The notes beneath the pieces are model-generated. The model was given only the letters and a program-made list of their open reading frames with translations, was not told where the DNA came from and ran no database searches. From contig JARRRI010000011.1 in NCBI GenBank assembly GCA_037380845.1, positions 1 through 60,598 of the forward strand: a DNA stretch of 60,598 nucleotides. The letters are read 5' to 3'. A program made the position numbers and the translations under genes. This document shows positions 1-31,539 of this stretch, one piece after another (position 1 is the first letter of the stretch; every line of letters begins with the position of its first letter). Source of the DNA: Candidatus Sulfobium sp. (GTDB lineage Bacteria; Nitrospirota; Thermodesulfovibrionia; Thermodesulfovibrionales; UBA6898).

Positions 1-50
1 CCGATGATAAATAATAAATTATTAGATGCCCTCATCATTCGAACTTCAAC

Positions 51-79
51 TTGACAGGAACGTCTTCTGTGGCAATAAT
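51..79 (+). promoter_or_regulatory. sigma70-type promoter upstream of riboswitch 1
   Basis: TTGACA-17 nt-AATAAT. Confidence 0.7.
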
Positions 80-94
80 AAGACCGAATAAAGG

Positions 95-191
95 CTCTCT
101 CGACAAAGCCGAACCCTCCGCGAGGAGGGGGCGGAAAGCGGCGGGTCTTCAGTAGAGTTATACGTTCAGGAGACGGCCGAGCTGCCAGAGG
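95..191 (+). ncRNA. GEMM-I (c-di-GMP-I / cGAMP family) riboswitch aptamer 1
   Basis: cgacaaagccgaacc-ctcc GCGA ggag-ggggcggaaagc..gggtct...agacggcc..gctgcc matches GEMM-I architecture: P2 with GNRA loop, GGAAAGC junction, P3; G at the position-20 equivalent (108). Confidence 0.85.
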
Positions 192-221
192 ATGAACTTT
201 GGCGGTTCGGCCTTTTCATTT
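176..221 (+). terminator. intrinsic terminator overlapping aptamer 1 (expression platform)
   Basis: ggccgagctgccagag / ctttggcggttcggcc stem followed by ttttcattt. Confidence 0.75.
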
Positions 222-282
222 GGGGGTGGAAGTCCGCTTTGAATTTACCCCCGGTGCAATGGCGTGAAGACGGAGGACGCGC

Positions 283-1617
283 GGGTCTGGTTCTGATCGG
301 CTTACACTGGAAGACGGTTCAAATGTTGCAGTCATAGGAGGTGGGCCAACAGGTTCCTTCTTCAGTATCTTTGCGCTTAAGATGGCGAAGATGATGGGCA
401 AGGAAATCGCGGTCAGCATATTCGAGCCGAAGGACTTCACTAAAGATGGTCCGGGGGGCTGTAACAGGTGCGGCGGGATAATCTCGGAACTCCTCGTGCA
501 AACACTGGCAGTGGAGGGCGTAAATCTTCCGGATTCCGTAGTCCGGAAGGGCGTCAATTCCTACCGGCTCCATACAGATCATGGTAGTGTTTTTATCGCC
601 ACCCCTTCTCTGGAGAAGACCATAGCCACCGTTTACAGGGGGGGCGGTCCCAGAGGGACAATCGGGGAAGAAAAGGAGAGCTTTGACAAATTTCTTCTTA
701 ATCAGGCGATTCAGGAAGGTGCTGTCCACAAAACCGTCCGCATAGACCGCATAGAATATAGAGACGATAAACCCTTACTGTTCTCGAAAAACCTTGAAGT
801 CATGCCGGCTGATCTCGTGGTGGGCGCTTTCGGTGTAAACAGCAGTTCAGGAAAAATGTTCGAAGACCTCGGCTTCGGCTACAGGGAACCGAGCAATATT
901 AGTGCAGCCATAGCGGAGATCAGCATGAACGAGGATGTCGTAGCAGAGCATTTCGGCAATTCGATCCAGCTTTTTCTCCTTCCAGACAAGGGAATAAAGT
1001 TTGGAGCAATGATACCGAAAGGCCCCTACGTAACCCTATGCATATTGGGGACCGAAATAGGGGCTCAAACCGTTCCTGATTTCATGGAAAAACCTGTAGT
1101 CAAGGGTGTTCTGCCGCATTCTGCCCCATATTCTGTAGCGTGCCGCTGCCTGCCGAAAATGAACGTCGGCGCTCCGAAGATACCATTCGCAGACAGGATC
1201 GTTCTTTGCGGGGATGCGGGTTCCACGAGACTTTTCAAGGACGGTCTGGGTGCAGCCTACATTATGGGGAAAGCAGCCGCGAAGACCGCGGTATTTGAAG
1301 GGGTAGGAGCTCGCGATTTCGAAAAGAATTACATGCCTGTTTACAGGAGCATCGTATTCGACAATTATTTCGGCCGGTTTCTCTATTTTGTTATCGACCG
1401 TTACAGAAAGACAGCGATGCTCACAAAGGCGATGCTGAAGGTCGTCGAAAAGGAGCAGCACGATCCGATGAACGGCAAAATACTGAGTTCCATTCTCTGG
1501 GACATGTTCACGGGAAATGAAAGATATAAGAACGTATTTTTCAAATCAGCTAAGATCAGAATGCACATAGATATGTGGGAGGGGTTGATAAAAAGTCTTG
1601 TCGGAGGGGAAAAATGA
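283..1617 (+). CDS. FAD-dependent oxidoreductase (geranylgeranyl-reductase-like); start uncertain
   Basis: In-frame Rossmann motif VAVIGGGPTG lies upstream of the track's ATG382; CNRCGG motif; GDAG second FAD motif. Confidence 0.75.
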   Translation, partial: GSGSDRLTLEDGSNVAVIGGGPTGSFFSIFALKMAKMMGKEIAVSIFEPKDFTKDGPGGCNRCGGIISELLVQTLAVEGVNLPDSVVRKGVNSYRLHTDHGSVFIATPSLEKTIATVYRGGGPRGTIGEEKESFDKFLLNQAIQEGAVHKTVRIDRIEYRDDKPLLFSKNLEVMPADLVVGAFGVNSSSGKMFEDLGFGYREPSNISAAIAEISMNEDVVAEHFGNSIQLFLLPDKGIKFGAMIPKGPYVTLCILGTEIGAQTVPDFMEKPVVKGVLPHSAPYSVACRCLPKMNVGAPKIPFADRIVLCGDAGSTRLFKDGLGAAYIMGKAAAKTAVFEGVGARDFEKNYMPVYRSIVFDNYFGRFLYFVIDRYRKTAMLTKAMLKVVEKEQHDPMNGKILSSILWDMFTGNERYKNVFFKSAKIRMHIDMWEGLIKSLVGGEK

Positions 1618-2480
1618 AGGAAGGCGAACTGGGAAAGGTCTACCATGACGGAGAGATCATCTTCAGGGAAGGTGAAAAGGGAGAGGTAATGTATGTGGTT
1701 CAGTCCGGCAAGGTGAGGATTACCAGGGAAAGTACATCGGGAGAACTCACCCTCGGCGTTCTCCAAGGCGGCGCAATCTTCGGAGAAATGGCCCTTTTCG
1801 ACAAGTTGCCGCGCTCTGCAACCGCCGTTGCCTCGGGAGATGCCAGGGTCCTTTCGGTTGACAGGAAGAAGCTCTTTCCCACCATCAGTAAGGACCCGAC
1901 TTTGCTCTTTAAGATACTCGAAACGATGAGTCAGAGGATAAGGGGACTTGATGACGAGATCGGAAAATTGAAAAAGCAGCGATCGGACGTGGTAGCGGTC
2001 TGTGCGAATATTGAGCAGATGGGCCACAGGATACTTGAAGGAGCACGCAATATTATAGACGCTGACAGCGGCTCCTTAATGCTTCTTGATGAAAAAGAAG
2101 AGTATCTTTCGGTCAAGGCGGCTTTCGGACCTGAATCGGATACAAAAATCAGGCTGAAGATCGGAGAGGGGATTGCCGGTAAAGTCCTGAAAACCGGGCT
2201 GGCCGAACTGGTAAATAATGCCTCGGACGATCCGCGTTTTCTGCCCGGGGCAAAGAAGGTAACCTCAATGCTCTGCGTCCCGATCGGATGTGAAGGGCGG
2301 AATTTCGGAGTGATCAATATGAGCACTGCGGCCCAAAAATCTTTCAGTGCAAATGATCTGAAATTGCTTTGTACGCTGGCCGTTTACGCGTCCATGGCGA
2401 TCGAAAGCGAGCTGAATTTTTTTAATCTGAAGAATGCTACCGATGATCTTCTGAGACATGCGACTATGTTGGAGGCCTGA
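1614..2480 (+). CDS. cyclic nucleotide-binding domain + GAF domain protein
   Basis: IFREGEKG..FGEMALFDKLPRSATA cNMP cassette; GEGIAGKV..DDPRF..LCVPI GAF signature; ATGA overlap with upstream gene. Confidence 0.88.
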   Translation: MKEGELGKVYHDGEIIFREGEKGEVMYVVQSGKVRITRESTSGELTLGVLQGGAIFGEMALFDKLPRSATAVASGDARVLSVDRKKLFPTISKDPTLLFKILETMSQRIRGLDDEIGKLKKQRSDVVAVCANIEQMGHRILEGARNIIDADSGSLMLLDEKEEYLSVKAAFGPESDTKIRLKIGEGIAGKVLKTGLAELVNNASDDPRFLPGAKKVTSMLCVPIGCEGRNFGVINMSTAAQKSFSANDLKLLCTLAVYASMAIESELNFFNLKNATDDLLRHATMLEA

Positions 2481-2529
2481 TAATAATAAATTCCTTATAT
2501 TCGGTTGGCATCATAATCATAATTAGAGA

Positions 2530-2558
2530 TTGACAAAAAAGTATTCTCGTGATAGATT
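2530..2558 (+). promoter_or_regulatory. sigma70-type promoter upstream of riboswitch 2
   Basis: TTGACA-17 nt-TAGATT. Confidence 0.65.
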
Positions 2559-2560
2559 AC

Positions 2561-2643
2561 AGCTCGATAAAGCTAAACCTTTCGTGAGAAGGGGACAGAA
2601 AGCAACGGATCTTGGGAAAAAGATGGCCGTGCTGCCGAAAGTT
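2561..2643 (+). ncRNA. GEMM-I (c-di-GMP-I / cGAMP family) riboswitch aptamer 2
   Basis: tcgataaagctaaacc-tttc GTGA gaag-gggacagaaagcaacggatctt...aagatggccgtgctgccga; G at the position-20 equivalent (2572). Confidence 0.88.
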
Positions 2644-2674
2644 AAACAACCCGGCAGCACGGCCGTAATTTTTT
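2623..2674 (+). terminator. intrinsic terminator overlapping aptamer 2
   Basis: perfect 13-bp ggccgtgctgccg / cggcagcacggcc stem followed by a T run. Confidence 0.8.
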
Positions 2675-3187
2675 CGGGAGACTGTTACAGGGGGGAAGGA
2701 CAGACTGGTGCTCTGCGGAAGTTCATTGGAGGCTTTCGCTTCTTTTGCCTTCTTCGTCCGCCGGTCATCCGTGAAAGAAATACTTCTGTTCTGTATTGAA
2801 GGACTGGAACTTTTGGATCCAGTGGCATAAAGAAGGTAAAAGCGTATCCGAATAAATCCCGGGGGGGTATTCGATGTTACGAGAAGACGTATTTCCTCAG
2901 CTAATTTATCGCGGCAGTCCCACTGCCCCTTTCTTCTTGTTATTTTCCGAGTTCTTCCCTAACTGTAAGTTTTTTGTTACCTCCGGTGAGGTAAAGTCGA
3001 AATGCGGGCGAGCGTACCCGCTGATCATCGGGGATTCATCGCCTTTGGTTGCGAGAAATAGAACCTTGCAAAGTTCTGTCTTAACAATAGCGAAAGGAGG
3101 GATCAAGTCCGGATGGAGGGGAGTGGCATGAAGAACCATTTTAAGAATTTGATTGCATCTCAAAAAAGAGGAGATAAGGAGGAGATT

Positions 3188-4075
3188 ATGAAAAGAGGAA
3201 AACAAATAGGTCTTTTGTTCATGGCGACGGTTGCCGTAGTCCTGTCCCTGGCAGCGACACAGGCCGGGGCACAATGCACTGCCGAGGAACTAAGTGCTTC
3301 CACTTGTTTTGTAACAGGCGGTTACGAAGTGAGGACTGTCGCACCATTATTTCCGGTTCAGAATCCTGACAGCACCACGACATTCAATTATACCGTGACT
3401 CCTGTGAGTACTTCCAAAAATATAAGCATGATTGATATGCTCGTGCCAATCTGTAGTGTCAATAACGCGATCCAAACGGCCACCGGAGACCCAAATGGGT
3501 GGGGGTCTTATGGAGATCCATATGTCGGGCAGACAAAGGGATCAGGGTCACCAAGCACCGGATTCGGGCTGGGTAACATGCAGTACTTCGTCTTTGAGCA
3601 AAACTTCGACAGCAGCGGCACATTCTATATCCATACAACAAAGGCGGCATCCCAACCTACATCGATGGCACTGAAGATCGGCAATACACTGTATGCCGGT
3701 TCCATCCTGGGGCCAGCCTGCTATGACGCCGGCGTGGGCAGCACAGTCTCTCAGGAGTTCGCGGTAGATCCTTTAGTGCACCCCGGCGTCAAGTTGAAGG
3801 TTGAAAAACAGTCGAATGGCAACATTATCAGTGTCACGGCAACGGACAAAGATGGACAGCCGCTGCCGGTGACGACTCTAAGTCTCAAGGACTATCCGTA
3901 CTGGGTCTGCCTCGATGCGGATTGGCATTATTCGAACGGCATACCAGTCTACGACGGCTGCAATGGTGATCTTTCACCTGTAACCCACATACCCGAAGGT
4001 GCGTTTCTCAAGTTTGGGAATAGTTCCTGGATCAGTTACACCATCGGGGGGACGACCTATGTGATCTGGATCTGA
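3188..4075 (+). CDS. secreted beta-rich hypothetical protein
   Basis: GGAGGAG RBS; signal peptide MKRGKQIGLLFMATVAVVLSLAATQAGA; Ser/Thr/Gly-rich with several Cys. Confidence 0.75.
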   Translation: MKRGKQIGLLFMATVAVVLSLAATQAGAQCTAEELSASTCFVTGGYEVRTVAPLFPVQNPDSTTTFNYTVTPVSTSKNISMIDMLVPICSVNNAIQTATGDPNGWGSYGDPYVGQTKGSGSPSTGFGLGNMQYFVFEQNFDSSGTFYIHTTKAASQPTSMALKIGNTLYAGSILGPACYDAGVGSTVSQEFAVDPLVHPGVKLKVEKQSNGNIISVTATDKDGQPLPVTTLSLKDYPYWVCLDADWHYSNGIPVYDGCNGDLSPVTHIPEGAFLKFGNSSWISYTIGGTTYVIWI

Positions 4076-4104
4076 TTATTCCGCTCAAGACCCGACCGGA
4101 GAAA

Positions 4105-4136
4105 GCCGGGACAGGGCCGAAAACGGTCCTCTCCCG
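4105..4136 (+). terminator. hairpin after secreted-protein gene
   Basis: ccgggacagggccg-aaaa-cggtcctctcccgg; weak U tail. Confidence 0.4.
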
Positions 4137-4170
4137 GACACCTCTTATCTCGATTGATTGGTGAAATTAT

Positions 4171-6468
4171 TTGAGCAATAGAGAAAACAAGAGCGCAATC
4201 GGCGGCAAAAAGTCCAGACTGTTTAAAGCAATAGTACTGGGCCTTCTTATGGGGATAATTGGGTTGGCGGTAAGTCCCCTGCATTCCATGCTTGCCCTTG
4301 AGGAAAATGTTGGTATGGGCCTGTTGTTCAAAATGAGGGGAGCCCGACAGGCTCCGCCCGATGCCGTCGTAGTTAGCATAGACAAAGAATCTTCCGAAAA
4401 ACTCAACCTGCCCGACAATCCCGATAAGTGGCCTCGTTCACTCCATGCCCGCCTGGCTGAAACTCTGGCCAGAAAAGGAGCCGGGGTCATCGCATTCGAC
4501 GTACATTTCATAGAGCCCCGTTCCGCCGGAGACGACGCTTTATTCGCCCAGGCGCTTAGGAAGGCCGGGAACGTCGTTCTTTGTGAGCCGCTCAAAATGA
4601 AGGAAGTTCCGCTTTCCGAGGGGCGCGAGTATGATGATACGGCAAGCCATAATATCGTGAAGGTGGTGCCTCCGATTGAACTCTTTACCCGCGCCGCCGC
4701 AGCGATAGCGCCCTTTACTCTCCCAAGGATACCATTCAAGGTAAGCCAGTACTGGACATTCGAGACAGGGGCGGGAGATTCGCCCACGATGCCGGCAGTG
4801 GCGCTCCAACTTTTCACTGCTCAGGCGTACGGGGACTTCATTCACCTGTTGCAAAAAGCGAGTCCGGAGCGAGCGGGAAAACTGCCTCGTGATATCAAAA
4901 CAGCCCGTGAGACAATCGGCATCAAGGGGCTGATGAAGCAGATAAGGGCGATTTTCGAAAGAGACCCCTTCATTGAAAAGAACATGGCTAAAGAATTGGA
5001 GAGTTCGGAGTACCGGTTCGGTGATCTGAAAAGCCGACGACTGGTCGAATCCCTGATAAGAATGTACGGGGGCGGCAACAGCCGATTCATAGATTTCTAC
5101 GGGCCGCCCGGTACCGTGACTACAGTGCCATACTTCCAGGCGCTCGAAACCGGAGAAAAGAAGGCCGGCGACAAACAGATAGATTTTAAGGGAAAAGCAG
5201 TCTTTGTCGGGCTCTCCGAAGTATTGCTGGCAGAAAGAAAAGACAGCTTTTATACCGTTTTTTCCAGGGCGAACGGCACATTTATCGGCGGGGTGGAGAT
5301 TATGGCCACTGCGTTCCTGAACCTGCTGACAGATACGCCCATGAAGCCCCTTGGCACTCGCTCCTACATCCTTCTCATTTTCCTCTGGGGTACCCTGATA
5401 GGGATAGTCTGCCGGGTATTTCCAGTCGGGTATGCAGCAGTGGCTACGGTTGGCCTGGGCATTCTTTATCTGATTGCTGCGGAGTATCAGTTCAAGACCA
5501 GCAACACCTGGTACCCTGTCGTTATCCCTCTTTTTTTACAGGCCCCGGTCGCTTTTTTTGGGGCCGTAATCTGGGATTATATTGAAACAAACAAGGAACG
5601 CCAGAATATCAAAAAGGCGTTTGAGTACTACCTTCCCAAAGACGTGGTGGGTCAGTTATCGAAAGACATCGCTCATATCAAGACAGGCAGTCAGGTCGTC
5701 CACGGAGTTTGCCTATTTACGGATGTGGCAGAATACACCTCCCTGTGTGAGACTATGGGGCCAAGGGAACTGGGAATATTCATGAATAAATACTACGAAA
5801 CTTTGTTCCGGCCCGTGAAACAGCACGATGGATTTGTTTCAGGCATAATCGGCGACGCCATGCTGGCGTTATGGGTGTCGGCAGGCAGTGAGACCGCCCT
5901 CAGAGGAAAGGCATGTTCGGCGGCGCTTGACATCAACATGGAATTGCAGCGGTTTGATCAGTCGCCCGGTTGTGAAAAGCTCAAGACCCGCATAGGCCTG
6001 CACTGCGGTCAGATTTTCCTGGGCCATGTCGGCGCTCTGGACCACTATGAATATACCCCAATGGGAGATATTGTCAACACTGCATCAAGGATCGAAGGGC
6101 TCAACAAATACCTGGGCACCAGCGTGCTGGTGTCGGAAGAGATTGTCGACAGCCTTCATGGTTTCCTGATCAGGGAGGTTGGAAAGTTCAGATTAAAGGG
6201 AAAGGCCAAACCAATCGTGGCTTATGAACTCATGGGCCTCAGGGAATCAAGTGAAGAAAAACAGAAAATGTCCTGTGATGTCTTTGCGGAGGCGCTGAGG
6301 GCTTTCAGAAGCCATTCGTGGGACGCTGCGAAAGAAAACTTCAGCCGGGTCATCGAAATCCTCGGTGAAGACGGGCCATCTTTGTTTTATCTGGGACTGT
6401 GCGATCGTTACAAGGAGAATCAGCCCGCGGAATCATGGGACAAAATAGTTGAAATGGGGAGCAAGTAG
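4171..6468 (+). CDS. CHASE2-domain class III nucleotidyl (adenylate/guanylate) cyclase
   Basis: CHASE2 motifs (VVVSID, WPR, IAFD, GVEI), TM helices, cyclase motifs FTD, GDA, RIGLHCG, GDIVNTASRIEG, LKGK. Confidence 0.92.
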   Translation: MSNRENKSAIGGKKSRLFKAIVLGLLMGIIGLAVSPLHSMLALEENVGMGLLFKMRGARQAPPDAVVVSIDKESSEKLNLPDNPDKWPRSLHARLAETLARKGAGVIAFDVHFIEPRSAGDDALFAQALRKAGNVVLCEPLKMKEVPLSEGREYDDTASHNIVKVVPPIELFTRAAAAIAPFTLPRIPFKVSQYWTFETGAGDSPTMPAVALQLFTAQAYGDFIHLLQKASPERAGKLPRDIKTARETIGIKGLMKQIRAIFERDPFIEKNMAKELESSEYRFGDLKSRRLVESLIRMYGGGNSRFIDFYGPPGTVTTVPYFQALETGEKKAGDKQIDFKGKAVFVGLSEVLLAERKDSFYTVFSRANGTFIGGVEIMATAFLNLLTDTPMKPLGTRSYILLIFLWGTLIGIVCRVFPVGYAAVATVGLGILYLIAAEYQFKTSNTWYPVVIPLFLQAPVAFFGAVIWDYIETNKERQNIKKAFEYYLPKDVVGQLSKDIAHIKTGSQVVHGVCLFTDVAEYTSLCETMGPRELGIFMNKYYETLFRPVKQHDGFVSGIIGDAMLALWVSAGSETALRGKACSAALDINMELQRFDQSPGCEKLKTRIGLHCGQIFLGHVGALDHYEYTPMGDIVNTASRIEGLNKYLGTSVLVSEEIVDSLHGFLIREVGKFRLKGKAKPIVAYELMGLRESSEEKQKMSCDVFAEALRAFRSHSWDAAKENFSRVIEILGEDGPSLFYLGLCDRYKENQPAESWDKIVEMGSK

Positions 6469-6529
6469 AAGAATTTTAACATAAAAAAAGACAGGGATGA
6501 TGAAAAAATATGGCTAAAAGGAGGGTGTT

Positions 6530-9500
6530 ATGCGAATATCTTTACGTTTCCTGAGCTTTATGGTATGTGCAGTCTTCGGACTGGTTCTGCTGCGGCCAGG
6601 CAATTCTTTGGCGGAAACTTGCGAAAAACCGGTCGCAAAAGTAGTATCTGTGCAAGGGACCGTGCAGGTAAAAAGGGCTGGTGGTACTCAGTGGCAGCAG
6701 GTCAAATTAAACGAATCGTATTGCCCCGGGGACGTGATTCAGGTAGGGGAAAAGAGCCGGGCGGACGTTGCACTGATAAACCAACCCGTTCTTCATCTTG
6801 ATCAGAACAGTGTAATCACCCTCGGAGGAATGAAAGATGAACGGACATCTCTCATATCGCTGATCAAGGGGGCCGCTCACTTCTTCAGCCGTGTCACCCG
6901 GGGGCTTGAGGTGCAGACTGCCTTCGTAAATGCAGGTGTCGAAGGGACAGAGTTTTTCATAAGGGTTAAGGAAGGCAAGACCGTCCTTTCAGTCTTTGAA
7001 GGAAAAGTCCTGGCCTCCAACCCAGCAGGGCGCCTTGCGATCACCAGCGGCCAATCAGCAGTTGCCGAGGAAGGGAAGGCCCCTGTTCCACTTGTTGTGA
7101 TACACCCCAGGGACGCGGTACAGTGGGCGCTTTATTATCCTCCTGTGATCTATTATCGTCCCGATCAATTTCAGGCCGGCCCTGCGGCAAGCTGGGAAGA
7201 GATGGTAAGGAAATCTCTTGAGTTTTACTGGAAAGGCGACCTGAAGGGTGCATTTTCGAGTATCGAGAAAGCCCCCGGCGATATTCGTGATCCGCGCTTT
7301 TTCATCTACCGGGCGGCGCTGCTGCTTACCGTCGGGCGCGTTGACGAGTCCGAGACCGATATCCGGAGGGCGCTCAGCCTGGCCCCAGGGAACAGCGATG
7401 CCTTTGCGCTTCAGTCTATAATTTACGTTGTAAGGAACAAAAAGGAGAAGGCCCTTGACCTGGCGCATAAAGCGGTGGAGGCCGCACCGGATTCCGCGAC
7501 AGCGAGAGTAGCTCTTTCTTATGCTCAGCAGGCCGACTTTGACCTGAAGGGGGCGCTGAAGAGCCTGCAGGATGCCGTAAAACTGGAGCCCGGCAACGCA
7601 CTGGCATGGGCGAGACTGTCTGAGCTGTGGCTTTCATTCGGTGAACTTAAGAAAGCCCAGACTTCAGCACAGAAGGCGGTTGCCCTGAACCCCGACATTT
7701 CGAGGACACAGACTGTTCTGGGCTTCGCGTTTCTGACCGAGATAAAGATCAGGCAATCACAGAAGGCGTTTGAGAGGGCAATCGAGCTGGATCAGGCTGA
7801 CCCGCTCCCCAGACTCGGTCTTGGCCTGTCACAGATCCGTGAAGGGGATCTGAAAGAAGGTGCAAGGGAAATCGAGATTGCAGCAAGTCTCGACCCCGAC
7901 AATTCACTGATCCGTAGTTATCTGGGGAAAACCTATTTTGAGGAGAAAAAAGAGAAATTGTCGTCGGAGGAGTATGGCATAGCCAAGCAACTGGACCCTG
8001 AAGATCCGACCCCTTTCTTCTACGATGCCATCCTGGAGCAGACCACGAACAAACCGGTTGAGGCCTTACACGATGTCCAAAAGGCGATTGAACTGAATGA
8101 CAACCGGGCGGTCTACCGTTCCAAGCTCCTGTTGGATGCTGATCTTGCCGCGCGGAGCGCAAGCCTTGCCCGTATTTATACCGATCTCGGCTTCCAGCAG
8201 CTTGCTCTTGTTGAGGGATGGCAATCAGTCAACACCGACCCGGCCGATTTCTCCGGCCACAGGTTCCTGGCCGACAGTTACACCGCCCTGCCCCGCCACG
8301 AGATAGCACGGGTCAGCGAACTCCTCCAGTCTCAGCTCCTCCAGCCGATTAATATTACTCCCATTCAGCCGCAGCTTGCGGAAAGCAACCTGTTCGTTAT
8401 AAGCGGCGGGGGACCTGCCGAACTCTCTTTTAACGAGTTCAATCCTTTGTTCAACGGGAACCGGCTGGCGCTGCAAATGAACGGAATCGCCGGGTCGCAT
8501 GACACTGTTGGCGAAGAGGCTGTCGCGTCCGGCATTTACAACAATGCTTCTTTCAGCGTCGGCCAGTTTTACTATAAGACGGATGGATATCGGGAAAACG
8601 ATGACGTCAAGGACACAATTGATAACGCATTTTTTCAGTACAGCCTGACGCCCGAGACGAGTATTCAGGCGGAATACAGATACAGAGATACTCAAAAAGG
8701 TGATCCCACACTCAGATTCTTCCAGGATGACTTCCTGCCCAACGAGAGACAGGTAGACAGAACCAACTCGGTTCGCCTGGGTTTCCATCACTCATTCTCT
8801 CCGGGGTCCGAGCTCATCGGCAACTTCATGTATCAGCATGCAGACCGAAGTGTGAACGATATACCTGATCCTGTAACGTTCCCGTCGCTTGCTATAAAAA
8901 ACAGTGAAAAGGCTTATAGCTCGGAACTTCAACATTTGTTCAGTTCCAGATACATCAAGACTATCATCGGAGCAGGATATTTCAAGATCGACTCAAAAGA
9001 CGTAATCAGCACGGAATTACTCATACCAGCGGTGGTGTTAGGTCTTGATCCTTTACTGGGTCTTGTGCCCGTTAAGTCCTCCACCGACAGCCCGAGGGAT
9101 GTCCGTCATTACAATCTCTACTTGTATTCCTACATCGATATTGTTAAAAATGTGACATTCAATGTCGGGGGAAGCGCCGACTTTTTTAAACGACAGCTCC
9201 CAAATGGTGATTTTGACGACAAGAACCAGTTCAATCCAAAATTGGGGATCACCTGGAACCCCGTTCCGGACACCACACTTCGCGCCGCCGTATTCAGGGC
9301 CTTGAAGAGGACGCTTATTACCGACCAGACTCTTGAACCGACTCAGGTGGCCGGCTTCAATCAGTTCTTTGATGATGAAAACGGAACAGAGTCGTGGAAC
9401 TACGGCATAGCCGTCGATCAAAAATTCTCCAGGAGTATTTACGGCGGAGCCGAATATCACCTCAGAAACCTGAAAACTCCCTTTGTAGAAAGTGCCGGAG

Positions 9501-9967
9501 ACGTGATTGAACTGAGGAAAGTCGGCTGGCATGAACACGTCGGCCGTGGATACGTATTCTGGACAGCGTATAAATGGCTGGCGCTGACTGCGGAATATAT
9601 GTATGAGAGACTTGAAAGGGACAAAGACTTCGCTAACGGAGCGAGAAACGTCGAGACTCACGAGGTTCCCCTGGGAGTCAATTTTTTTCATCCCTCCGGA
9701 TTCAGTGCAGGGCTGAAAGCGACTTACATACACCAGCAAGGAAGTTTTGAGCGGCAAGGGAACCTTCGTATCTTTGAAGACGGTGCAGATCAGTTCTGGC
9801 TGTTTGACGCCGCGATCAGTTATCGGCTTCCGAAACGCCTGGGTTTCGTCACCGTAGGGGGGAAGAACCTGTTTGACAGATCATTCCAATTTTTTGATTC
9901 AGACCCCACGAATCCGAAAATACAACCGAGGAGGTTCCTTTTTGCACGGGTAACATTATCATTCTGA
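6530..9967 (+). CDS. FecR-domain / TPR / TonB-dependent-receptor-like outer-membrane protein
   Basis: signal peptide; FecR motif (AGVEGTEF); several TPRs; C-terminal barrel with NPKLG, NLFD and terminal Phe. Confidence 0.88.
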   Translation: MRISLRFLSFMVCAVFGLVLLRPGNSLAETCEKPVAKVVSVQGTVQVKRAGGTQWQQVKLNESYCPGDVIQVGEKSRADVALINQPVLHLDQNSVITLGGMKDERTSLISLIKGAAHFFSRVTRGLEVQTAFVNAGVEGTEFFIRVKEGKTVLSVFEGKVLASNPAGRLAITSGQSAVAEEGKAPVPLVVIHPRDAVQWALYYPPVIYYRPDQFQAGPAASWEEMVRKSLEFYWKGDLKGAFSSIEKAPGDIRDPRFFIYRAALLLTVGRVDESETDIRRALSLAPGNSDAFALQSIIYVVRNKKEKALDLAHKAVEAAPDSATARVALSYAQQADFDLKGALKSLQDAVKLEPGNALAWARLSELWLSFGELKKAQTSAQKAVALNPDISRTQTVLGFAFLTEIKIRQSQKAFERAIELDQADPLPRLGLGLSQIREGDLKEGAREIEIAASLDPDNSLIRSYLGKTYFEEKKEKLSSEEYGIAKQLDPEDPTPFFYDAILEQTTNKPVEALHDVQKAIELNDNRAVYRSKLLLDADLAARSASLARIYTDLGFQQLALVEGWQSVNTDPADFSGHRFLADSYTALPRHEIARVSELLQSQLLQPINITPIQPQLAESNLFVISGGGPAELSFNEFNPLFNGNRLALQMNGIAGSHDTVGEEAVASGIYNNASFSVGQFYYKTDGYRENDDVKDTIDNAFFQYSLTPETSIQAEYRYRDTQKGDPTLRFFQDDFLPNERQVDRTNSVRLGFHHSFSPGSELIGNFMYQHADRSVNDIPDPVTFPSLAIKNSEKAYSSELQHLFSSRYIKTIIGAGYFKIDSKDVISTELLIPAVVLGLDPLLGLVPVKSSTDSPRDVRHYNLYLYSYIDIVKNVTFNVGGSADFFKRQLPNGDFDDKNQFNPKLGITWNPVPDTTLRAAVFRALKRTLITDQTLEPTQVAGFNQFFDDENGTESWNYGIAVDQKFSRSIYGGAEYHLRNLKTPFVESAGDVIELRKVGWHEHVGRGYVFWTAYKWLALTAEYMYERLERDKDFANGARNVETHEVPLGVNFFHPSGFSAGLKATYIHQQGSFERQGNLRIFEDGADQFWLFDAAISYRLPKRLGFVTVGGKNLFDRSFQFFDSDPTNPKIQPRRFLFARVTLSF

Positions 9968-10088
9968 CATAAACAGGGAACCGTTCGGGACAAAATAAAA
10001 TGTCCTGCGGGGACGCTGAGAACAGGATGTTCCCGCTGTCTTTAATCATGCTTATAGGCTATAATAAATCGTCAAAGGGACCGGAAAT

Positions 10089-11582
10089 ATGAGCGACGGC
10101 GTTACCATAAGAATCCTCGGAGATTTTGGGCCTTTTTCGCGGATTGGCAAGAGCATCGGATACCAGGTATCACGGGGAGGGCGTTCCTACCTGATAGATT
10201 GCGGATCACCTCTTTTTCATGAAATCAGCGGACACGAGCTGAAGGCAGTGGACGGTCTCATAATAACCCATTGTCACGATGATCATAAGAGGTGGTTCAC
10301 CGATCTTGCCCTCTTCTATATGTATGCCCGGGATATAAATCAAAAGTTGCACCTCATTACGGCCGAGGAAATCCATAATGAACTCATGAAGTCATGTGGC
10401 CCTGCCCTTGATCGGAGTCTCTCGCCGGACTCCAAGAGAGTAATCGACATACCTCCGGATGAATATGTCCGTTATCGGATACTCGGGCCGCGGGCGAGAT
10501 ACAGGATAGTCTTGAGGGATGAAGGCCGGGGGAAGACAGGACTGTGTGTTGTGGACGGCGCCGGGAACGAGGTCGGACCCGAGAAGGCCAAGGTCGTAGT
10601 CAGTGAGAAGACCGGCAGGCCGAGGATGCTTTTCAAAGATCCCGACTACGGGGAGTGGGTCGAGCCGGAGAGCTTCTATCCCTTTGCTGCAAGTATATTT
10701 TATGAAGAGGACAGGAATGTGTTTCAGGATGAAGGAGGTTTGACATTCGATGCAGTAAAGGCGCCGGTCTGGCACGGGGTCCCCGCCATAGGGTTGAGAA
10801 TCACGACTCCTCACGAAAAGATCCTCTTTACTTCAGACACGGTCCATAGCCAGAACCTGTGGAAGGACCTCTATACGGAAAAGAGAAAACAGCGGTTCGG
10901 CAGCACGTCGCCAAAGGAGTTCGAATCCGCTTCCGTATTACTGGGAGACATTAATGATTACATCGAAAGAGCCTGGAGCGAAGAGCGATACGAAGAAGCG
11001 GTAAAGACGTTTGAGGAGGCCGTCATTATTCATGATGTCGCCATTTGCAACAGCGTTGTTCACACGGATTATGAGAGGCTGGATGAAACCGGCCTGGTGC
11101 GTGAAAAGACAATATTAACTCATAGCCCCGACCGGATAACATCGGAGTGGGTGTTGTGCGATGTCGGGAAGACGATCAGAATCGCGGGAAATGAATTTTA
11201 CGAGGTTGTGGATGAGGATCTCTATCCGATGGATGCGGACCTTTACGTGAAGGAGGTCGGGAAATACTACGTCGGCTACAGGCGGGAAGACGGGCGATAC
11301 AGAGTGTATGAAAAAGACGGGCTCCTCACGGTATCATCCGAAGACAGGAATGATGACGGAGCTACTTTTCTTTACAGAGTCGATCTCTACGAAGATATAT
11401 CAGGCAGATATTTCCCGAGGATAGAAGAAGGCGAGGCCCGGTATTTCAGGCGTCGGGACGGAAAAGTCGAGCGCCTGGAATTTACCGACGAAGGAAGCAG
11501 AGGAAGGGTGGTCGAAGACCAGAGGAGCAAAGTCTCGACAAAATCGTCCGTAGTTTCTCCGGGACGAGAGAACCAGGCTTGA
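10089..11582 (+). CDS. metallo-beta-lactamase-fold hydrolase (RNase Z / cNMP phosphodiesterase-like)
   Basis: LIDCG, THCHDDH (HxHxDH), later H, SDT, H and THS motifs. Confidence 0.75.
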   Translation: MSDGVTIRILGDFGPFSRIGKSIGYQVSRGGRSYLIDCGSPLFHEISGHELKAVDGLIITHCHDDHKRWFTDLALFYMYARDINQKLHLITAEEIHNELMKSCGPALDRSLSPDSKRVIDIPPDEYVRYRILGPRARYRIVLRDEGRGKTGLCVVDGAGNEVGPEKAKVVVSEKTGRPRMLFKDPDYGEWVEPESFYPFAASIFYEEDRNVFQDEGGLTFDAVKAPVWHGVPAIGLRITTPHEKILFTSDTVHSQNLWKDLYTEKRKQRFGSTSPKEFESASVLLGDINDYIERAWSEERYEEAVKTFEEAVIIHDVAICNSVVHTDYERLDETGLVREKTILTHSPDRITSEWVLCDVGKTIRIAGNEFYEVVDEDLYPMDADLYVKEVGKYYVGYRREDGRYRVYEKDGLLTVSSEDRNDDGATFLYRVDLYEDISGRYFPRIEEGEARYFRRRDGKVERLEFTDEGSRGRVVEDQRSKVSTKSSVVSPGRENQA

Positions 11583-11638
11583 TCCCGAAACTTCACTGTT
11601 TCCAGGACAGGACGACCAGAAAAGAATAGGGGTACGGG

Positions 11639-12655
11639 ATGTCAAAGACAGACTCTGTCTTTGGGGAATTGACAGGCTCCGACCTGAACAAAATCAGGGC
11701 GCTGGCAGTCAGAAAAACCTGCAAGAAGGGCGAGCTGATATTTTCCGAAGGCGACACGGCAGATTACGTATATTTCATTGAGACCGGACGCGTTTCCATT
11801 TTTATCCGGAAATTCACTGACCAGGAAGAAATTGCCACGCTCGGGCCGGGTGAGTTCTTTGGCGAGATGGCAATATTTCATAAGGACAAAAGGACAGCTT
11901 CCGTCGCAGCCCTGACCGACACAACCCTCTTAAGCATCGACAGGAATGTTTTTATGAACTTCCTGCAGGCTGATCCCTCAGCGGCCCATAAGATCAACAC
12001 AGTCCTTGCCAGACGGAACGAAGAACTTATCCTCAAGGAAAGCCTGCTCGACATCACCGGCATGAAGGGGAAGAATTTTCACGTGAGCATCAAGGGTGAC
12101 CCGTCGATGCGGGAGACTACTTTTACAAGGGAAAGATATGAAAGCGTAGTCGACAAGATCCTGCCGCTGCTCGGACCCAATCTGGAAGACCTGTTGCTCA
12201 ACCGGTGCGTCTATCAGGTCTTCGTCGCCTTCAACAGCGGAGAGGTCCACACCTCGTCCGTGTTTGAACCGTTCGGCGAGGAAATTCATCAGGCAAACAA
12301 GCTGATTGACAAAGCTTTTATCGAACGTCATTTCCCCCGGGTTGCGTACGAAGAAAAAGTGATGATGGTCAGGCGAATATATCAGGCGATCGCCCGTGAT
12401 CCGGTCTCCGGCAGCCTTCCCGGCCATTTCAGGAAAATTTTCAGCTCCTATTATGAAAACTGGAAGCCTGTCAGGCCGGAAGAACTTTCGAATACCATAT
12501 CAAGACTGACCGCCCTCAGAAGTATCCCCAACTATTATCTTCGCAATTTCACACTAAACGCGACCCGGGATGCCATTCGCATGCAATTCAATTGCGACGG
12601 AACGCACATCGTCAGCGCTGAAGATTATCAGCGTTTTCTAGAAGAAAACCTTTAA
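11639..12655 (+). CDS. cyclic nucleotide-binding protein with unrecognised C-terminal domain
   Basis: IFSEGD..FFGEMAIFHKDKRTASV cassette. Confidence 0.85.
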   Translation: MSKTDSVFGELTGSDLNKIRALAVRKTCKKGELIFSEGDTADYVYFIETGRVSIFIRKFTDQEEIATLGPGEFFGEMAIFHKDKRTASVAALTDTTLLSIDRNVFMNFLQADPSAAHKINTVLARRNEELILKESLLDITGMKGKNFHVSIKGDPSMRETTFTRERYESVVDKILPLLGPNLEDLLLNRCVYQVFVAFNSGEVHTSSVFEPFGEEIHQANKLIDKAFIERHFPRVAYEEKVMMVRRIYQAIARDPVSGSLPGHFRKIFSSYYENWKPVRPEELSNTISRLTALRSIPNYYLRNFTLNATRDAIRMQFNCDGTHIVSAEDYQRFLEENL

Positions 12656-12817
12656 GGGAGGGGCGGCGGTCCCGGTGTGCATCCGTCGCGCAGATGTTAC
12701 AGTGCCTTATCATGGTGGAAGGCCCATGACGGGGCTTGTCGGTCCGCGAACAGGAACGAAGCAGGTCGGAAAGCGGACAAGGTCTTCACGAGAAAACGTC
12801 GCGGTCTCCGCAAAATA

Positions 12818-13780
12818 GTGAAAGATAACTTGTCGGAAAAGATAAAATTGGGAATCAGTTCCTGCCTTTTGGGCCGGAAAGTACGCTACGACGGCGGGCA
12901 CAAACTCGACCATTTCCTGGCGGACACTCTGGGTAAGTTCGTGGAATGGGTGCCGGTGTGCCCGGAAGTCGAAAGCGGACTGCCGGTGCCAAGGGAGGCT
13001 ATGCGGCTGGTGGGAAGCCCCGATGCGCCACGTCTTGTAACAGTTCGCACGGGCGAAGACCACACCGGGCGGGTGGAAAAATGGGCCGGGCGAAGACTTT
13101 CAGAACTGGAAGAAGCCGGTCTCTGCGGGTTCGTCTTTAAGAGCCGCTCACCGAGTTCGGGCCTGCGCGATGTTAAGGTTTATTCGACGGCCGGCGTCCC
13201 GTCAAGGAAGGGGGCCAGCATTTTCGGCAAGGCATTTATGGAGAGGTTTCCGCTCCTGCCGGTCGAGGATGAAGGAAGGCTCAATGACCCCGTCCTCAGG
13301 GAAAATTTTATCGAGAGGGTCTTCGTCTTCAGGAGATGGCGTGGTCTTCTCGAAAAAAGGCTGACGGCCGGCAGCCTGGTAGCCTTCCATTCGGACCACA
13401 AACTTCTCATCCTTTCTCACAGTCCTGCTCACTACCGGTCACTGGGCCCACTGGTAGCACATGCGAAAGATCATCCGCTGAGGGAATTACATTCGGAGTA
13501 TATTAAGATCCTTATGGAGGGCCTGCGGCTCATCTCCACAAGGGCAAAAAACACTAACGTCCTTCACCATATAATGGGGTACTTCAGGAAAAATATCTCA
13601 GCCTCCGAAAAGGCGGAGCTTCTCGAAATCATCGGGAACTATAAAACCGGTCTCCTCCCCCTGATAGTCCCTGTTGTCCTCCTGAACCATTATGTGCGCA
13701 TATACGATGTCCCTTATCTGAAGAGGCAATATTACCTGAACCCTCATCCGCTCGAACTAATGCTGAGAAACCACGTCTAG
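12818..13780 (+). CDS. DUF523/DUF1722 (YbgA-like, 2-thiouracil desulfurase family) protein
   Basis: GISSCLLG..VRYDGGHK, CPEVE, KSRSPSSG, C-terminal YLNPHP.ELMLRNHV. Confidence 0.88.
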   Translation: MKDNLSEKIKLGISSCLLGRKVRYDGGHKLDHFLADTLGKFVEWVPVCPEVESGLPVPREAMRLVGSPDAPRLVTVRTGEDHTGRVEKWAGRRLSELEEAGLCGFVFKSRSPSSGLRDVKVYSTAGVPSRKGASIFGKAFMERFPLLPVEDEGRLNDPVLRENFIERVFVFRRWRGLLEKRLTAGSLVAFHSDHKLLILSHSPAHYRSLGPLVAHAKDHPLRELHSEYIKILMEGLRLISTRAKNTNVLHHIMGYFRKNISASEKAELLEIIGNYKTGLLPLIVPVVLLNHYVRIYDVPYLKRQYYLNPHPLELMLRNHV

Positions 13781-13789
13781 GCCCCGCCT

Positions 13790-21178: not shown

Positions 21179-21496
21179 CTATTTAAACGTCTTCAAAATA
21201 TAATCGGCTATTTTCTTTGCGTCCTTGTCGGAGACCATCTGCTTTGTAAACTGTGTCATGCCCGGTCCCGGGTTTCTCATCTTGCCCACGATGTCCTCGG
21301 CGGTCTTCACGCCGTGCTTGTCCCTGTCCTTCTTGTGCAAGGTAAAATCCGGATTGATGATATTGCTGCCGTCGGGGTGGCAGGGCGAGCAATGCTGTTC
21401 AAACAACTCCTCGCCCGAATTTCCGTTCGCTCCCGCTGCCTGCAGGAAACAGAATACGAGAGATACCGACAATGCTGCCATGACAGCCTTCTTCAT
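21179..21496 (-). CDS. monoheme cytochrome c6-like protein
   Basis: signal peptide, CSPCH, GPGM distal Met; GGAGG RBS. Confidence 0.88.
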   Translation of the reverse strand: MKKAVMAALSVSLVFCFLQAAGANGNSGEELFEQHCSPCHPDGSNIINPDFTLHKKDRDKHGVKTAEDIVGKMRNPGPGMTQFTKQMVSDKDAKKIADYILKTFK

Positions 21497-21559
21497 GGTT
21501 AACCTCCTTTTCGACTTTTTTGTACTGATAAGTCCCGTCTGCAAATAAACACTGCTAAC

Positions 21560-21649
21560 GTCATGCCCGGGGTTCTTAGTCGGGCATGGCGGCAGACGGG
21601 TCCACTCCGTCTGAAAACCTGGATTCCCGGTTATTGCCCCGGGAATGAC
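21560..21649. repeat. REP/RPE-like palindromic repeat, copy A
   Basis: gtcatgcccg...tggattcccggttattgccccgggaatgac; core shared with 31478 and 33332. Confidence 0.7.
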
Positions 21650-21722
21650 GAATTCGAAATGCGCATCTTTTTTTGCATTGTTGGAGTAAATTCCGCTACG
21701 CGGCAAATTTCTCCAACCCTGA

Positions 21723-22595
21723 TCAGAATTGAAAAAGCCTGTCGGCGGCCAGGACGATCATTACAAGCACCATTCCCGCATTCATTCCCCTGAATGCGAA
21801 TGAACAACAAGACTTCTTCACCTTCCCGTGAAGAAGTCTTGCGCCATTCCATATGAGCCAGACCGATACCGCCACAAGGGAGACACCCACCGGCAGACTC
21901 TTTGTTACCCCGCAGGCGCCGATGAATATGCAGCTCACCGCCACGGAGCTGATCCAGACAAAGCTTATTCTCGCTATCTGCTCTTTGGCAAATATGGAAG
22001 TAAGAGCAGGCAGGCCGGCCCTCTCATATTCTTCACCATAGTTGAGAAGAAACAACCAGAAATGGGGCACCTGCCACATGAAAAAGAAAAAACAGAGAAA
22101 CAGTAATCCGGGGTCGAAAAGGCCGCCGCCGGCAGCGGTCCAGCCGACGGCAGGCGGAACCGCGCCGACCAGCCCGCCCGGAAACACCGCAAACGCCGTT
22201 CTTTTTTTCAGAGGTGTGTAAACACCGTTGTACCAGACGACCGTAAAGGCACCCAATGAGAGGGCATAAATATTTCCCTCAGCCGCCAGCAACACGCATC
22301 CCGCGACAAGGAGCATAACGGCAAACAGGAGTGCCCTGCGGGACCCTATCCTCCCCGATGGAAGCGGCCTCGACCGGGTACGCGGCATGCGCGCATCGGT
22401 TGCCCTCTCGCTGTGCTGGTTGAGGGCGCTCGCACCGCATGCCAGAACAAAAACCGCCATCATCACACCGGCCAGCCTCCATGCCGGCCCCCGGATAAGG
22501 AGAAAGCCGGCACCGGCGGAACAGGCCGAAAACAGGGAGATCCTCATTCTGCAAAGACCGGCATAGGCCGCGATATTCTTTCCGCCCATATTCAT
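21723..22595 (-). CDS. ctaB: protoheme IX farnesyltransferase (heme O synthase)
   Basis: NQ..ER..DARMPRTRSRPLPSG, YTPLKK, WQVPHF. Confidence 0.92.
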   Translation of the reverse strand: MNMGGKNIAAYAGLCRMRISLFSACSAGAGFLLIRGPAWRLAGVMMAVFVLACGASALNQHSERATDARMPRTRSRPLPSGRIGSRRALLFAVMLLVAGCVLLAAEGNIYALSLGAFTVVWYNGVYTPLKKRTAFAVFPGGLVGAVPPAVGWTAAGGGLFDPGLLFLCFFFFMWQVPHFWLFLLNYGEEYERAGLPALTSIFAKEQIARISFVWISSVAVSCIFIGACGVTKSLPVGVSLVAVSVWLIWNGARLLHGKVKKSCCSFAFRGMNAGMVLVMIVLAADRLFQF

Positions 22596-23500
22596 TTTAA
22601 CGTCTTCATGTAGGCTATAATCTCATGTATTTCCTTGTCCGTAACCGGTAGAGTCGGCATCACCGGCGGGAATCCCTTTACGATATCGGCCTTCGGATGC
22701 TTGATGGATCGTTCGATGTATTCGTCGTCCGCCGTGATCATTCTCTGCTTTCCGTTGGTCACAACGGTGACCTTCCTCCCGTAAAGTCCCTTGAATGTCG
22801 GCCCAACCTTCTTCGTTCCGTCCGTGGTATGACACCCCAGACATCCCTTTGACTGCAGGAGCTGTTTTCCGGCGGCAGCCGGGGTCTTGGCGGCTTTCTC
22901 CTTCGCCTCGTACCATTCTTCAAAATCGCTGTCTTTCATGGCTATCAGTTTGGAGCGCATATGAGAGTGGCCTACTCCGCAGTATTCGGTGCAGAAAATG
23001 TCATATGTGCCGACTTCATCGGCTATGAACCAGAGGTGGGTCGTCATTCCGGGGACGCAGTCCTCCTTTACCCTGAAGGCGGGAACAAAGAAACTGTGGA
23101 TGACGTCTTCCGACGTCATCTCCAGCTTTACCGGCTTTCCTACCGGCACCTTGAGCACGTTGCTTCCCTTCCCGTTTTGATACTTGAAAGACCACTCCCA
23201 CTGCCGGCCGATGACATTGACCGGCATGGCGTCTTTCGGTGGATTGCGTATGTATTCGAAATTCACCCATCCGAAATAAAACATTATTAAGACAAGGATG
23301 GTGGGAACAATGGTCCATGTCACCTCCAGTGGGATGTTGTCTTTCGTTTCGGCTGCGCGCGAATTTCTCTTCTTGTTGTACTTGAAAAGAAAGACCAGCA
23401 TGGCAATCGTGATCGTGACAAGCAGGACAACGCACATCACCGTAACTATAACGAAGGCGCTTTCCACTTTGCCTGAAGTATTGGACGGTCCCAGGAACAT
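22592..23500 (-). CDS. coxB: cytochrome c oxidase subunit II with fused cytochrome c
   Basis: DVIHSF, CTEYCGVGHSHM (CuA), CLGCH. Confidence 0.95.
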   Translation of the reverse strand: MFLGPSNTSGKVESAFVIVTVMCVVLLVTITIAMLVFLFKYNKKRNSRAAETKDNIPLEVTWTIVPTILVLIMFYFGWVNFEYIRNPPKDAMPVNVIGRQWEWSFKYQNGKGSNVLKVPVGKPVKLEMTSEDVIHSFFVPAFRVKEDCVPGMTTHLWFIADEVGTYDIFCTEYCGVGHSHMRSKLIAMKDSDFEEWYEAKEKAAKTPAAAGKQLLQSKGCLGCHTTDGTKKVGPTFKGLYGRKVTVVTNGKQRMITADDEYIERSIKHPKADIVKGFPPVMPTLPVTDKEIHEIIAYMKTLK

Positions 23501-23503
23501 TAG

Positions 23504-23806
23504 TCACCTCGCTCTGAACAAGACGTCCGAAAAAGTAAAAAGAATAATCAGCGTCAGTACCAGGATGGCCATGGAAACCATCAACCTCAAAAATTTCCCC
23601 TCGTACCTGAGGTTCATGAAGAAAACAAGGTTCGTAACGGCCATACACGACGCTATTATGATATTCAGCAACACCGTGATCCCTTTAACAAGGACCTGTG
23701 AGACCGAAATGTTCAGGGCCAGAAGAAACAGCAGGAACAGCCAGGTCATTATGTATGTCCTGTAGCTGACGATTCGGGCCCTCTGTTCTCCTTCGGTGCG
23801 TTCCAT
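23504..23806 (-). CDS. cytochrome c oxidase subunit IV family protein
   Basis: three TM helices, FFMNLRYE; operon position. Confidence 0.8.
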   Translation of the reverse strand: MERTEGEQRARIVSYRTYIMTWLFLLFLLALNISVSQVLVKGITVLLNIIIASCMAVTNLVFFMNLRYEGKFLRLMVSMAILVLTLIILFTFSDVLFRAR

Positions 23807-23812
23807 AATTCC

Positions 23813-26718: not shown

Positions 26719-27095
26719 TTGCACCTCTTCTATATTTTTATCTGATCCGCAGTGGATGACGGTTGTCATTTCCTTCGAGCTACTCTCAGCGAAGTCCTGG
26801 CTACCCTGCGCGGAGACCCGCTTCGAAAACCCCTGTTCCTTATCGACGGGTTGAACCATTCATCCCTGACATACACAGGATAACGTGTGCCGGAAACTAG
26901 GCCATCGTCAAACACTACTAAACCTTATCACAAAAAAGAGGAGTTGAGAAGAGGTAAGAAGACTGAGTCGGGCAGGCTGCGGACCCGCGAGGATGTGAGC
27001 CGGGAGAAGGTTAAACGCGTGCGCCGAAAAAGAAATGAGAGGAGGCGCTATCCCATATCTTTCTCCGGTGCGGGACAGCGCCTTCGAAGGCTCCG

Positions 27096-30044: not shown

Positions 30045-30046
30045 TA

Positions 30047-31507: not shown

Positions 31508-31539
31508 GAAGCCGACCAGGACTTTTGCAATGTTAACTT

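Follow-up and report, generated by a model that had tools for sequence, protein, structure and literature searches.

A putative cyclic mononucleotide circuit of reusable modules with a probable flavoenzyme output in Candidatus Sulfobium

The window analysed here, 60,598 nucleotides (nt) of DNA from Candidatus Sulfobium sp. (assembly GCA_037380845.1, contig JARRRI010000011.1, positions 1 to 60,598), opens with a cluster of genes for cyclic nucleoside monophosphate (cNMP) signalling, of which a flavoprotein is probably the main conserved output. The window is the start of contig C11 in a 3.18 Mb, 100% complete genome of a marsh bacterium. Open reading frame and family scans bore out the seven co-oriented genes and their domains as listed in an earlier note made from the sequence alone, including the lack of a Crp helix-turn-helix (HTH) on either cNMP receptor of the cluster, and likewise its two GEMM-I riboswitches, both of which score above the Rfam cut-off (Table 1). 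An eighth co-oriented gene, DUF523+DUF1722, follows, and adjoins the cluster in loci L064 and L105 as well.

Contigs from public runs (four runs, three studies) cover the locus, and a single contig of an independent run spans window positions 1-13789 in one piece. The GC composition at the locus matches that of the contig, with no anomaly, so the term ‘island’ can refer to gene content only; the flanking genes are pentose-phosphate and respiratory genes. The cluster's PF00211 cyclase is the sole class III cyclase of the genome, and two of the genome's five cNMP-domain proteins are encoded in the cluster. Read by eye, only these two have a complete GE...R phosphate cassette; the remaining three lack the cassette Arg, and two of the three are of Crp/Fnr type. 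These features agree with the cNMP circuit proposed in the earlier note and, judged by its sequence, the cluster is the genome's whole cNMP kit: putative outer-membrane receptor, synthesising enzyme, degrading enzyme and nucleotide receptors. Since it holds the only cyclase, whatever cNMP signals the cell uses should pass through it.

Table 1. Features of the cluster, in window coordinates.
Feature	Position	Strand	Remarks
Sigma-70-like promoter, unit 1 (TTGACA-17-AATAAT)	51..79	+	11/12 matches; consensus match only
GEMM-I riboswitch 1 + intrinsic terminator (175-212 + U tract)	98..219	+	aptamer 98-190; G20/A47/C92
GGR/FixC-fold flavoprotein, 4 conserved Cys (CxxC + CxC), clade-specific docking helix	283..1617	+	
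cNMP domain without N-terminal helix (FGEMAL...RSAT cassette) + GAF (PF00027+GAF)	1614..2480	+	predicted regulatory subunit
Sigma-70-like promoter, unit 2 (TTGACA-17-TAGATT, extended -10)	2530..2558	+	10/12 matches
GEMM-I riboswitch 2 + competing terminator (2625-2664 + U tract)	2562..2674	+	aptamer 2562-2640; G20/A47/C92
Secreted, Cys-containing, fast-diverging protein	3188..4075	+	longer, variable; upstream of cyclase
CHASE2 membrane class III nucleotide cyclase (CHASE2+PF00211)	4171..6468	+	keeps catalytic D, D, N, R
NsrA-like outer-membrane protein: signal peptide, FecR, TPR, TonB-receptor-type barrel	6530..9967	+	
MBL-fold hydrolase with HxHxDH (HCHDDH)	10089..11582	+	nearest structures: Apyc1, YhfI
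Second cNMP receptor: complete domain with N-terminal helix (FGEMAI...RTAS) + conserved 210-aa domain	11639..12655	+	accessory member
DUF523+DUF1722 (YbgA-like) gene	12677..13780	+	real start probably near 12830

The flavoprotein gene begins in the window with GGG (283-285), which is no start codon. All four runs have a T at position 284, giving a GTG start behind a Shine-Dalgarno-like GGAGG, so the gene is intact in the population; a pseudogene was rejected on the strength of this start in independent assemblies. No Pfam family matched the protein. Its model (predicted local distance difference test, pLDDT, 95.8) has the flavin adenine dinucleotide (FAD) fold of the p-hydroxybenzoate hydroxylase type, and its best fold matches are geranylgeranyl reductases (GGR) and FixC, with halogenases close behind (3oz2, Z 31.5, root mean square deviation 3.1, 362 residues aligned; 7koe, Z 31.1; 3atq, Z 29.1; 15–17% identity). 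The motifs GxGxxG and CGG are shared with the GGR superfamily, and the score against TIGR02032 is 39.5 bits, under the cut-off of 158.8. A narrow alignment of the flavoprotein found no solved relative, and a wider one found remote halogenase/FixC matches only. The four Cys are nearly invariant across the whole family. The wider enzyme family comprises 630 representatives at E≤1e-10. Fusions of NDH-2-like, DUF7530, tandem or cNMP+PilZ type also occur (P0312, P0330, P0342, P0354; P0320, P0326, P0348, P0355, P0369; L170:6750-8873), possibly hinting at a quinone or membrane substrate and at a c-di-GMP (cyclic di-GMP) input at the protein level.

The flavoprotein (hereafter the enzyme) is tied to a cNMP-domain partner, whose gene start overlaps the enzyme's stop in the window. 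From the best 80 of 496 or more metagenome loci, 21 were dropped because the 3′ end of the enzyme or 500 nt downstream was missing; in 54 of the 59 testable loci a cNMP domain lay within 500 nt downstream of the enzyme or was fused to it (48/52 clusters at 90% identity), and 12 loci (9 clusters at 90% identity) carried fusions. Among 42 enzyme loci from 41 of the 301 genomes of the class (one locus fetched twice was dropped), enzyme was followed by cNMP domain in 39, and of 150 distant representatives examined, 10 showed Pfam-confirmed fusions. Partnered sequences form one clade (100 tips, support 0.80), and on the enzyme tree the state alternates between fused and split at least ten times. 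Partners begin about seven residues before the first strand; where they are separate genes, 45/55 have 15 codons or fewer between the enzyme stop and that strand, too little for the N-terminal helix seen in most control cNMP domains. The phosphate cassette was matched in 66/72 partners.

Enzymes that make or degrade cyclic nucleotides lie close by: within 10 kb of the enzyme there was a cyclase in 17/42 genome loci, a phosphodiesterase (PDE) of the metallo-beta-lactamase (MBL) fold in 19/42, and a cyclase or PDE in 27/42 (chance estimate about 1–2%). The cyclases among these neighbours are of several unrelated architectures, and the PDEs are of three types. A class III cyclase was found in 41/41 enzyme-bearing genomes, compared with 207/301 overall (matched by eye, the kin among these genomes not being independent). 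At one locus (L098:8319-10904) a GAF-cyclase-Apyc1-like fusion uniting synthase and degrader in a single polypeptide comes directly after the flavoprotein and a stand-alone cNMP gene.

Co-folding of enzyme and partner, with FAD and cyclic AMP (cAMP), scored 0.73, against 0.01 for the best of three controls; the mark applied was reached by 116/157 solved complexes and by 2/215 mismatched pairs. Runs agreed in at least 88% of contacts, with partner pLDDT of at least 85. In the model, enzyme helix 62-71 fills the partner surface 28/55/80/97/100, and these contacts align, with no offset, to I28, I55, A80, V97 and L100 of Bd1971. Conservation lends support independent of the model: Q65, A68 and E70 of the helix are 97, 87 and 90% conserved in 71 partnered sequences, compared with 22, 22 and 31% in 88 representatives without context. 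The clade-conserved enzyme helix is thus predicted to take the place of the partner's lost N-terminal helix. Tied as it is to a cNMP domain by adjacency, fusion and predicted interface, the flavoprotein makes the enzymatic output that the earlier note had suggested well supported.

The cyclase scores above the PF00211 cut-off and belongs to a branch of 1007 proteins matched at E≤1e-30. In its 120 closest members, the two metal-binding Asp and the transition-state Asn and Arg are invariant (120/120), and the position of the ATP-specifying Lys, the role of which is described in PMC4215837, is occupied by Gly (114), Asp (5) or Ser (1), and by Lys in none. Aligned to solved adenylyl cyclases and CyaK, the window cyclase has Gly there, and with the Lys missing the base of its product is uncertain. 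The barrel gene was detected in 32 of the 301 class genomes, and 26 barrel regions were fetched (one barrel genome with weak partial matches only was left out). A CHASE2 cyclase lay directly upstream of the barrel in 23/26, two of the three exceptions being contig edges. A small protein ending in an NP-C-W..W..C hairpin followed the barrel in 24/31 cases (by eye); these mini-proteins (L189-L213, L102, L105) are of 60–130 amino acids (aa), mostly without a signal peptide and sometimes two in tandem, and matched no Pfam family. In place of such a mini-protein the window has a longer, variable secreted protein, encoded upstream of the cyclase. The secreted protein of the window had no Pfam family and no usable Atlas family match; its relatives adjoin the cyclase/barrel pair in L064, L096, L100 and L188.

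The metal site of the MBL hydrolase (H61, H63, D65, H66, H229, D250, H345) is invariant in 38/38 sequences. Its best matches in the PDB are remote (7t28, 6kns and 7u2r, E ~1e-5), and it scores 17.1 bits against the Pfam Apyc1 family PF23023, for which the cut-off is 50; from sequence it is likely to be a 3′,5′-cNMP phosphodiesterase. A TATAAT lies upstream, so the gene may have its own promoter. Of the 301 class genomes, 5 had the second cNMP receptor, and only in the genus of the window is its gene linked to the cluster. Its 210-aa domain has 1093 homologues in several phyla, with a conserved QFNCDGTH motif and no Pfam, Atlas or PDB sequence match; fold searches with the whole model were filled by cNMP-domain matches. 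In L107, a gene for this C-terminal domain is divergent from a riboswitch-led flavoprotein gene; further second-receptor loci are L214-L216.

The seven families had been put forward as one island, and on this point neighbourhoods spoke otherwise. In the best 80 of 151 MBL loci, all seven were together once, in a congener (L064), and the second receptor is found in few genomes, as given above; the seven-family island was rejected as a conserved unit. L100, from another family, has six of the seven genes in unchanged order, and L096 has the same set as L100 with a class II PDE replacing the MBL protein. In the 80 loci, 37 MBL genes had a cyclase as neighbour, 35 a CHASE2 domain and 27 FecR, these cyclases belonging mostly to a different, Lys-containing lineage with separate FecR and TPR/barrel genes. 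The cluster is a modular assembly of reusable modules, rather than a fixed island.

Each riboswitch aptamer sits behind a near-consensus sigma-70 promoter and matches RF01051 (51.7 and 62.9 bits, cut-off 35), and the terminator hairpins overlapping aptamers 1 and 2 have energies of −32.5 and −30.6 kcal/mol. In each case the 3′ strand of the aptamer is also part of the terminator, so read-through is expected when ligand is bound, and both are predicted to be terminator-type ON switches. The key bases of both aptamers, mapped by eye, are those given in PMC6140456 as the c-di-GMP signature, A20 marking the type that binds cyclic GMP-AMP (cGAMP). Two other labels were rejected: c-di-GMP-I-GGC (RF03167), the best Rfam label, needs G47 and both aptamers have A47 in the Rfam alignment, and the cGAMP type (GEMM-Ib) needs A20. 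The genome has 15 GEMM-I copies (14 over cut-off), 13 with G20 and two with A20 (by eye); the A20 riboswitches lie on contigs C17 and C83, and one precedes a probable multiheme cytochrome gene. One GGDEF protein of the genome has the Hypr serine, a GAF-GGDEF protein (C30:7149-8543, minus strand) that is a candidate cGAMP synthase of Hypr (GacA-like) type in Nitrospirota. With such a protein in the genome, and some members of the riboswitch family being bispecific, cGAMP is a possible input, less likely than c-di-GMP.

Of the other enzyme loci, 38 had at least 600 nt of upstream DNA, and none of these showed a riboswitch within that distance upstream of the enzyme; in the 80 metagenome loci one lay upstream on the same strand in two (L107, directly; L117, one gene away). 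Elsewhere riboswitches precede the enzyme (L107), the cyclase (L195) or the secreted gene (congener L064). The riboswitches are a lineage-level addition outside the conserved core, and a place within that core was rejected. Riboswitch gating had earlier been taken as a defining feature, a view that does not survive 15 copies genome-wide and none at the 38 other loci. The 500-nt leader between riboswitch 2 and the secreted gene (2675-3187) holds a second terminator-like hairpin (2715-2739), matched nothing in Rfam, and differs in independent assemblies at about a dozen positions and by two small insertions.

The first ~195 bases of the window are shared, with 95% identity, by the end of contig C48 (its first ~300 bases, minus strand), and the letters in which C48 differs from the window (70, 84, 111, 164, 166, 193) are those of the public runs. 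C48 is probably the upstream neighbour of the window, and one of the 15 riboswitch matches is then a duplicate. The gene at the end of C48 encodes an NAD(P)-binding (YbjT-like) protein, and in nine metagenome loci the flavoprotein is flanked by similar genes, of DUF2867. Beyond the cluster, window positions 21179-38776 hold a caa3-type cytochrome c oxidase operon, a MauG/MbnH-like di-heme protein and a Rieske/cytochrome b/multiheme complex; the host lineage of the oxidase operon is a probable sulfate-reducer lineage.

On balance, the locus is probably a complete cNMP circuit built from reusable modules, with allosteric control of the flavoenzyme as its main conserved output. By analogy with NsrA, the outer-membrane FecR-TPR-barrel protein would sense a protein ligand outside the cell, possibly the co-encoded variable secreted protein, and would signal across the periplasm to the CHASE2 cyclase, whose residues suggest that it makes a 3′,5′-cNMP; homology and neighbourhood point to the MBL hydrolase as the enzyme removing it. 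The nucleotide would bind the ‘headless’ cNMP domain which, in the predicted interface, borrows flavoprotein helix 62-71. This helix follows the CNRCGG loop, placed at the flavin site by analogy with GGR, so ligand binding would switch the enzyme. Going by its fold, the flavoenzyme most likely reduces or oxidises a hydrophobic, membrane-linked substrate (lipid, isoprenoid or quinone). The riboswitches would turn both units on at high c-di-GMP, the ligand suggested by G20, and the circuit would then be made in the sessile state.

Several observations weigh against allosteric control of the flavoenzyme within such a circuit. The fold search (Z 31.5 to 28) fails to separate reductase from halogenase or monooxygenase, and the flavoprotein family has tandem, NDH-2-fused and DUF7530-fused forms without cNMP domains. 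An adjacent cNMP domain is missing in 5/59 metagenome and 3/42 genome loci (two partial matches), and 15/42 genome loci show neither cyclase nor PDE in the DNA covered. No more than 11/42 enzyme loci have a barrel within 10 kb, and most of the 26 barrel regions are without the enzyme, so an NsrA-like receptor is not the enzyme's only input. Similarity between the secreted protein and the mini-protein family is weak (8.5 bits, reached by 0/200 shuffles). Finally, the co-folding job differs from its calibration, with its own alignment and ligands riding along, and the model may recall a helix in the pocket from solved cNMP domains such as Bd1971, so that the likeness to Bd1971 supports the mechanism and equally offers a source for such recall.

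It is conceivable, if unlikely, that only the NsrA/CyaK-like receptor, the cyclase and the PDE function as a unit, and that the flavoprotein/cNMP pair is merely co-located and co-regulated with them, the enzyme not being allosteric and the cNMP-GAF protein acting elsewhere or buffering the signal. The 23 regions in which receptor and cyclase stand together, mostly without the enzyme, fit this account, as does the cyclase/PDE/FecR/TPR cluster described, with no such enzyme in that description, in PMC9239204; repeated enzyme-cNMP fusion, loss of the partner's helix, the clade-specific conserved surface helix and the co-folding result all speak against it. Signalling in the reverse direction appears rather improbable. 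Here the partner would be a structural or redox-sensing subunit, the flavin or Cys redox state setting nucleotide binding, or else its ligand would come from a source other than the window cyclase. The near-invariance of the four Cys, the NDH-2 fusions and a cyclase of unproven activity without the canonical Lys would suit such a subunit, but the intact phosphate cassette in 66 of the 72 partners, the recurrence of different cyclase and PDE families beside the enzyme, and the invariance of the catalytic D, D, N and R in the 120 cyclases would not.

A transcriptional output by way of a Crp/Fnr protein from another locus, on the pattern of Clr in Sinorhizobium, is very unlikely: the genome does encode two HTH proteins of this type, and Crp genes occur in 9/80 other MBL/cyclase loci, but both proteins lack the cassette Arg and one also lacks the Glu (by eye). 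We give hardly any credence to a Pycsar-like anti-phage system, in which the cyclase would make cCMP or cUMP, cNMP-domain proteins would kill and the Apyc1-like hydrolase would reset, although PADLOC matches to PycC and PycTIR models, the non-canonical base-specifying residue and the Apyc1-like MBL protein favour it. The PADLOC matches cover only the shared cyclase and cNMP domains, the family scan found no TIR or transmembrane effector domain, the CHASE2 receptor cyclase has an outer-membrane partner, and the locus has pentose-phosphate and respiratory flanks and a GC content matching the contig.

A bolder form of the allosteric flavoenzyme reading can be offered only tentatively, and we rather doubt it as a whole. 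It holds that the locus represents an undescribed class of cNMP-switched flavoenzymes, in which a headless cNMP domain is completed in trans by a helix of a four-Cys GGR-fold enzyme that wires the messenger to the flavin site, driven by an NsrA-like receptor whose ligand is secreted, polymorphic and encoded by the cell itself (kin or surface sensing) and which acts through a cyclase branch making a non-cAMP nucleotide, with c-di-GMP riboswitches turning the circuit on. Where the end point of a bacterial cNMP pathway is known, it is mostly a Crp-type regulator and, to our knowledge, few directly cNMP-regulated enzymes have been reported; no description of a cNMP-regulated GGR-like flavoprotein was found in searches of open-access papers. 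The locus suggests a widespread flavoenzyme clade that has its own cNMP subunit, with a concrete interface predicted and with fusions of the two occurring naturally in a single chain, and the window cyclase is a test case for a large branch whose closest members lack the ATP-specifying Lys. Through the riboswitches, a cyclic dinucleotide would directly control the transcription of cyclic mononucleotide signalling genes, with separate placements in L107 and L195.

Among known systems, the NsrA-CyaK (CyaD1/D2)-Clr relay of Sinorhizobium meliloti (PMC7529298, PMC13001267) had been named as a parallel in the earlier note, and similarity and adjacency sustain the comparison. Both systems have an adjacent CHASE2 class III cyclase and FecR-TPR-barrel protein of ~1150–1190 aa; the receptor shares 20–22% identity over its full length with the gene beside cyaK on pSymB, and the window cyclase 26% over 432 aa with CyaK. 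However, CyaK keeps the ATP-specifying Lys (DKY) where the window branch has SGI/SGV, and the window cluster has no Clr-type receptor, the degenerate cassettes of the genome's two Crp/Fnr proteins being at odds, at sequence level, with a Clr-type output; the window adds a PDE, an enzyme output, a variable secreted protein and riboswitches. The combination had not been recognised as a described one, but a cluster of CHASE2 cyclase, PDE, FecR outer-membrane protein and TPR protein was already noted by Mo et al. 2022 (PMC9239204). The window cluster has functional counterparts of all four, and its MBL family is found in such clusters; FecR, TPR and barrel form one polypeptide in the window, unlike in the account of that cluster, which leaves the PDE family unstated and names no effector enzyme or riboswitch.

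The closest likeness to the predicted interface is in Bd1971 of Bdellovibrio, described as a cAMP-activated EAL phosphodiesterase in which a linker helix replaces the N3A motif and relays cAMP binding (PMC6717892). In both, a cNMP domain without N3A takes, in the hydrophobic site 28/55/80/97/100, an output-side helix that controls, or in the window is predicted to control, an enzyme; the helix of Bd1971, as described there, is a linker inside a single protein that hydrolyses c-di-GMP as its output, whereas a helix from a separate flavoprotein chain is predicted here. The MBL protein shares HxHxDH and the downstream His and Asp with Apyc1 and YhfI, reported as class II (MBL-fold) cNMP phosphodiesterases (PMC9117128), but the match is remote and the window protein is roughly double their length, carrying a large insertion and an extended C terminus. 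Within the GGR/FixC/flavin halogenase superfamily, the flavoprotein is set apart by its four-Cys motif and its cNMP partner. Other cNMP-regulated enzymes (Pat acetyltransferase; cNMP-thioredoxin-reductase-like fusions) use other catalytic folds. The many terminator-type riboswitches and the single Hypr-type GGDEF gene recall the GEMM-I/GEMM-Ib regulons of Geobacter (17 GEMM copies in G. sulfurreducens, according to PMC6456294), although 13 of the 15 copies here, including both in the cluster, have G20 rather than A20 (by eye). Set beside these systems, the sensing half of the circuit (receptor, cyclase and PDE) is a variant of a known relay, and the cNMP-coupled flavoenzyme is the new part.

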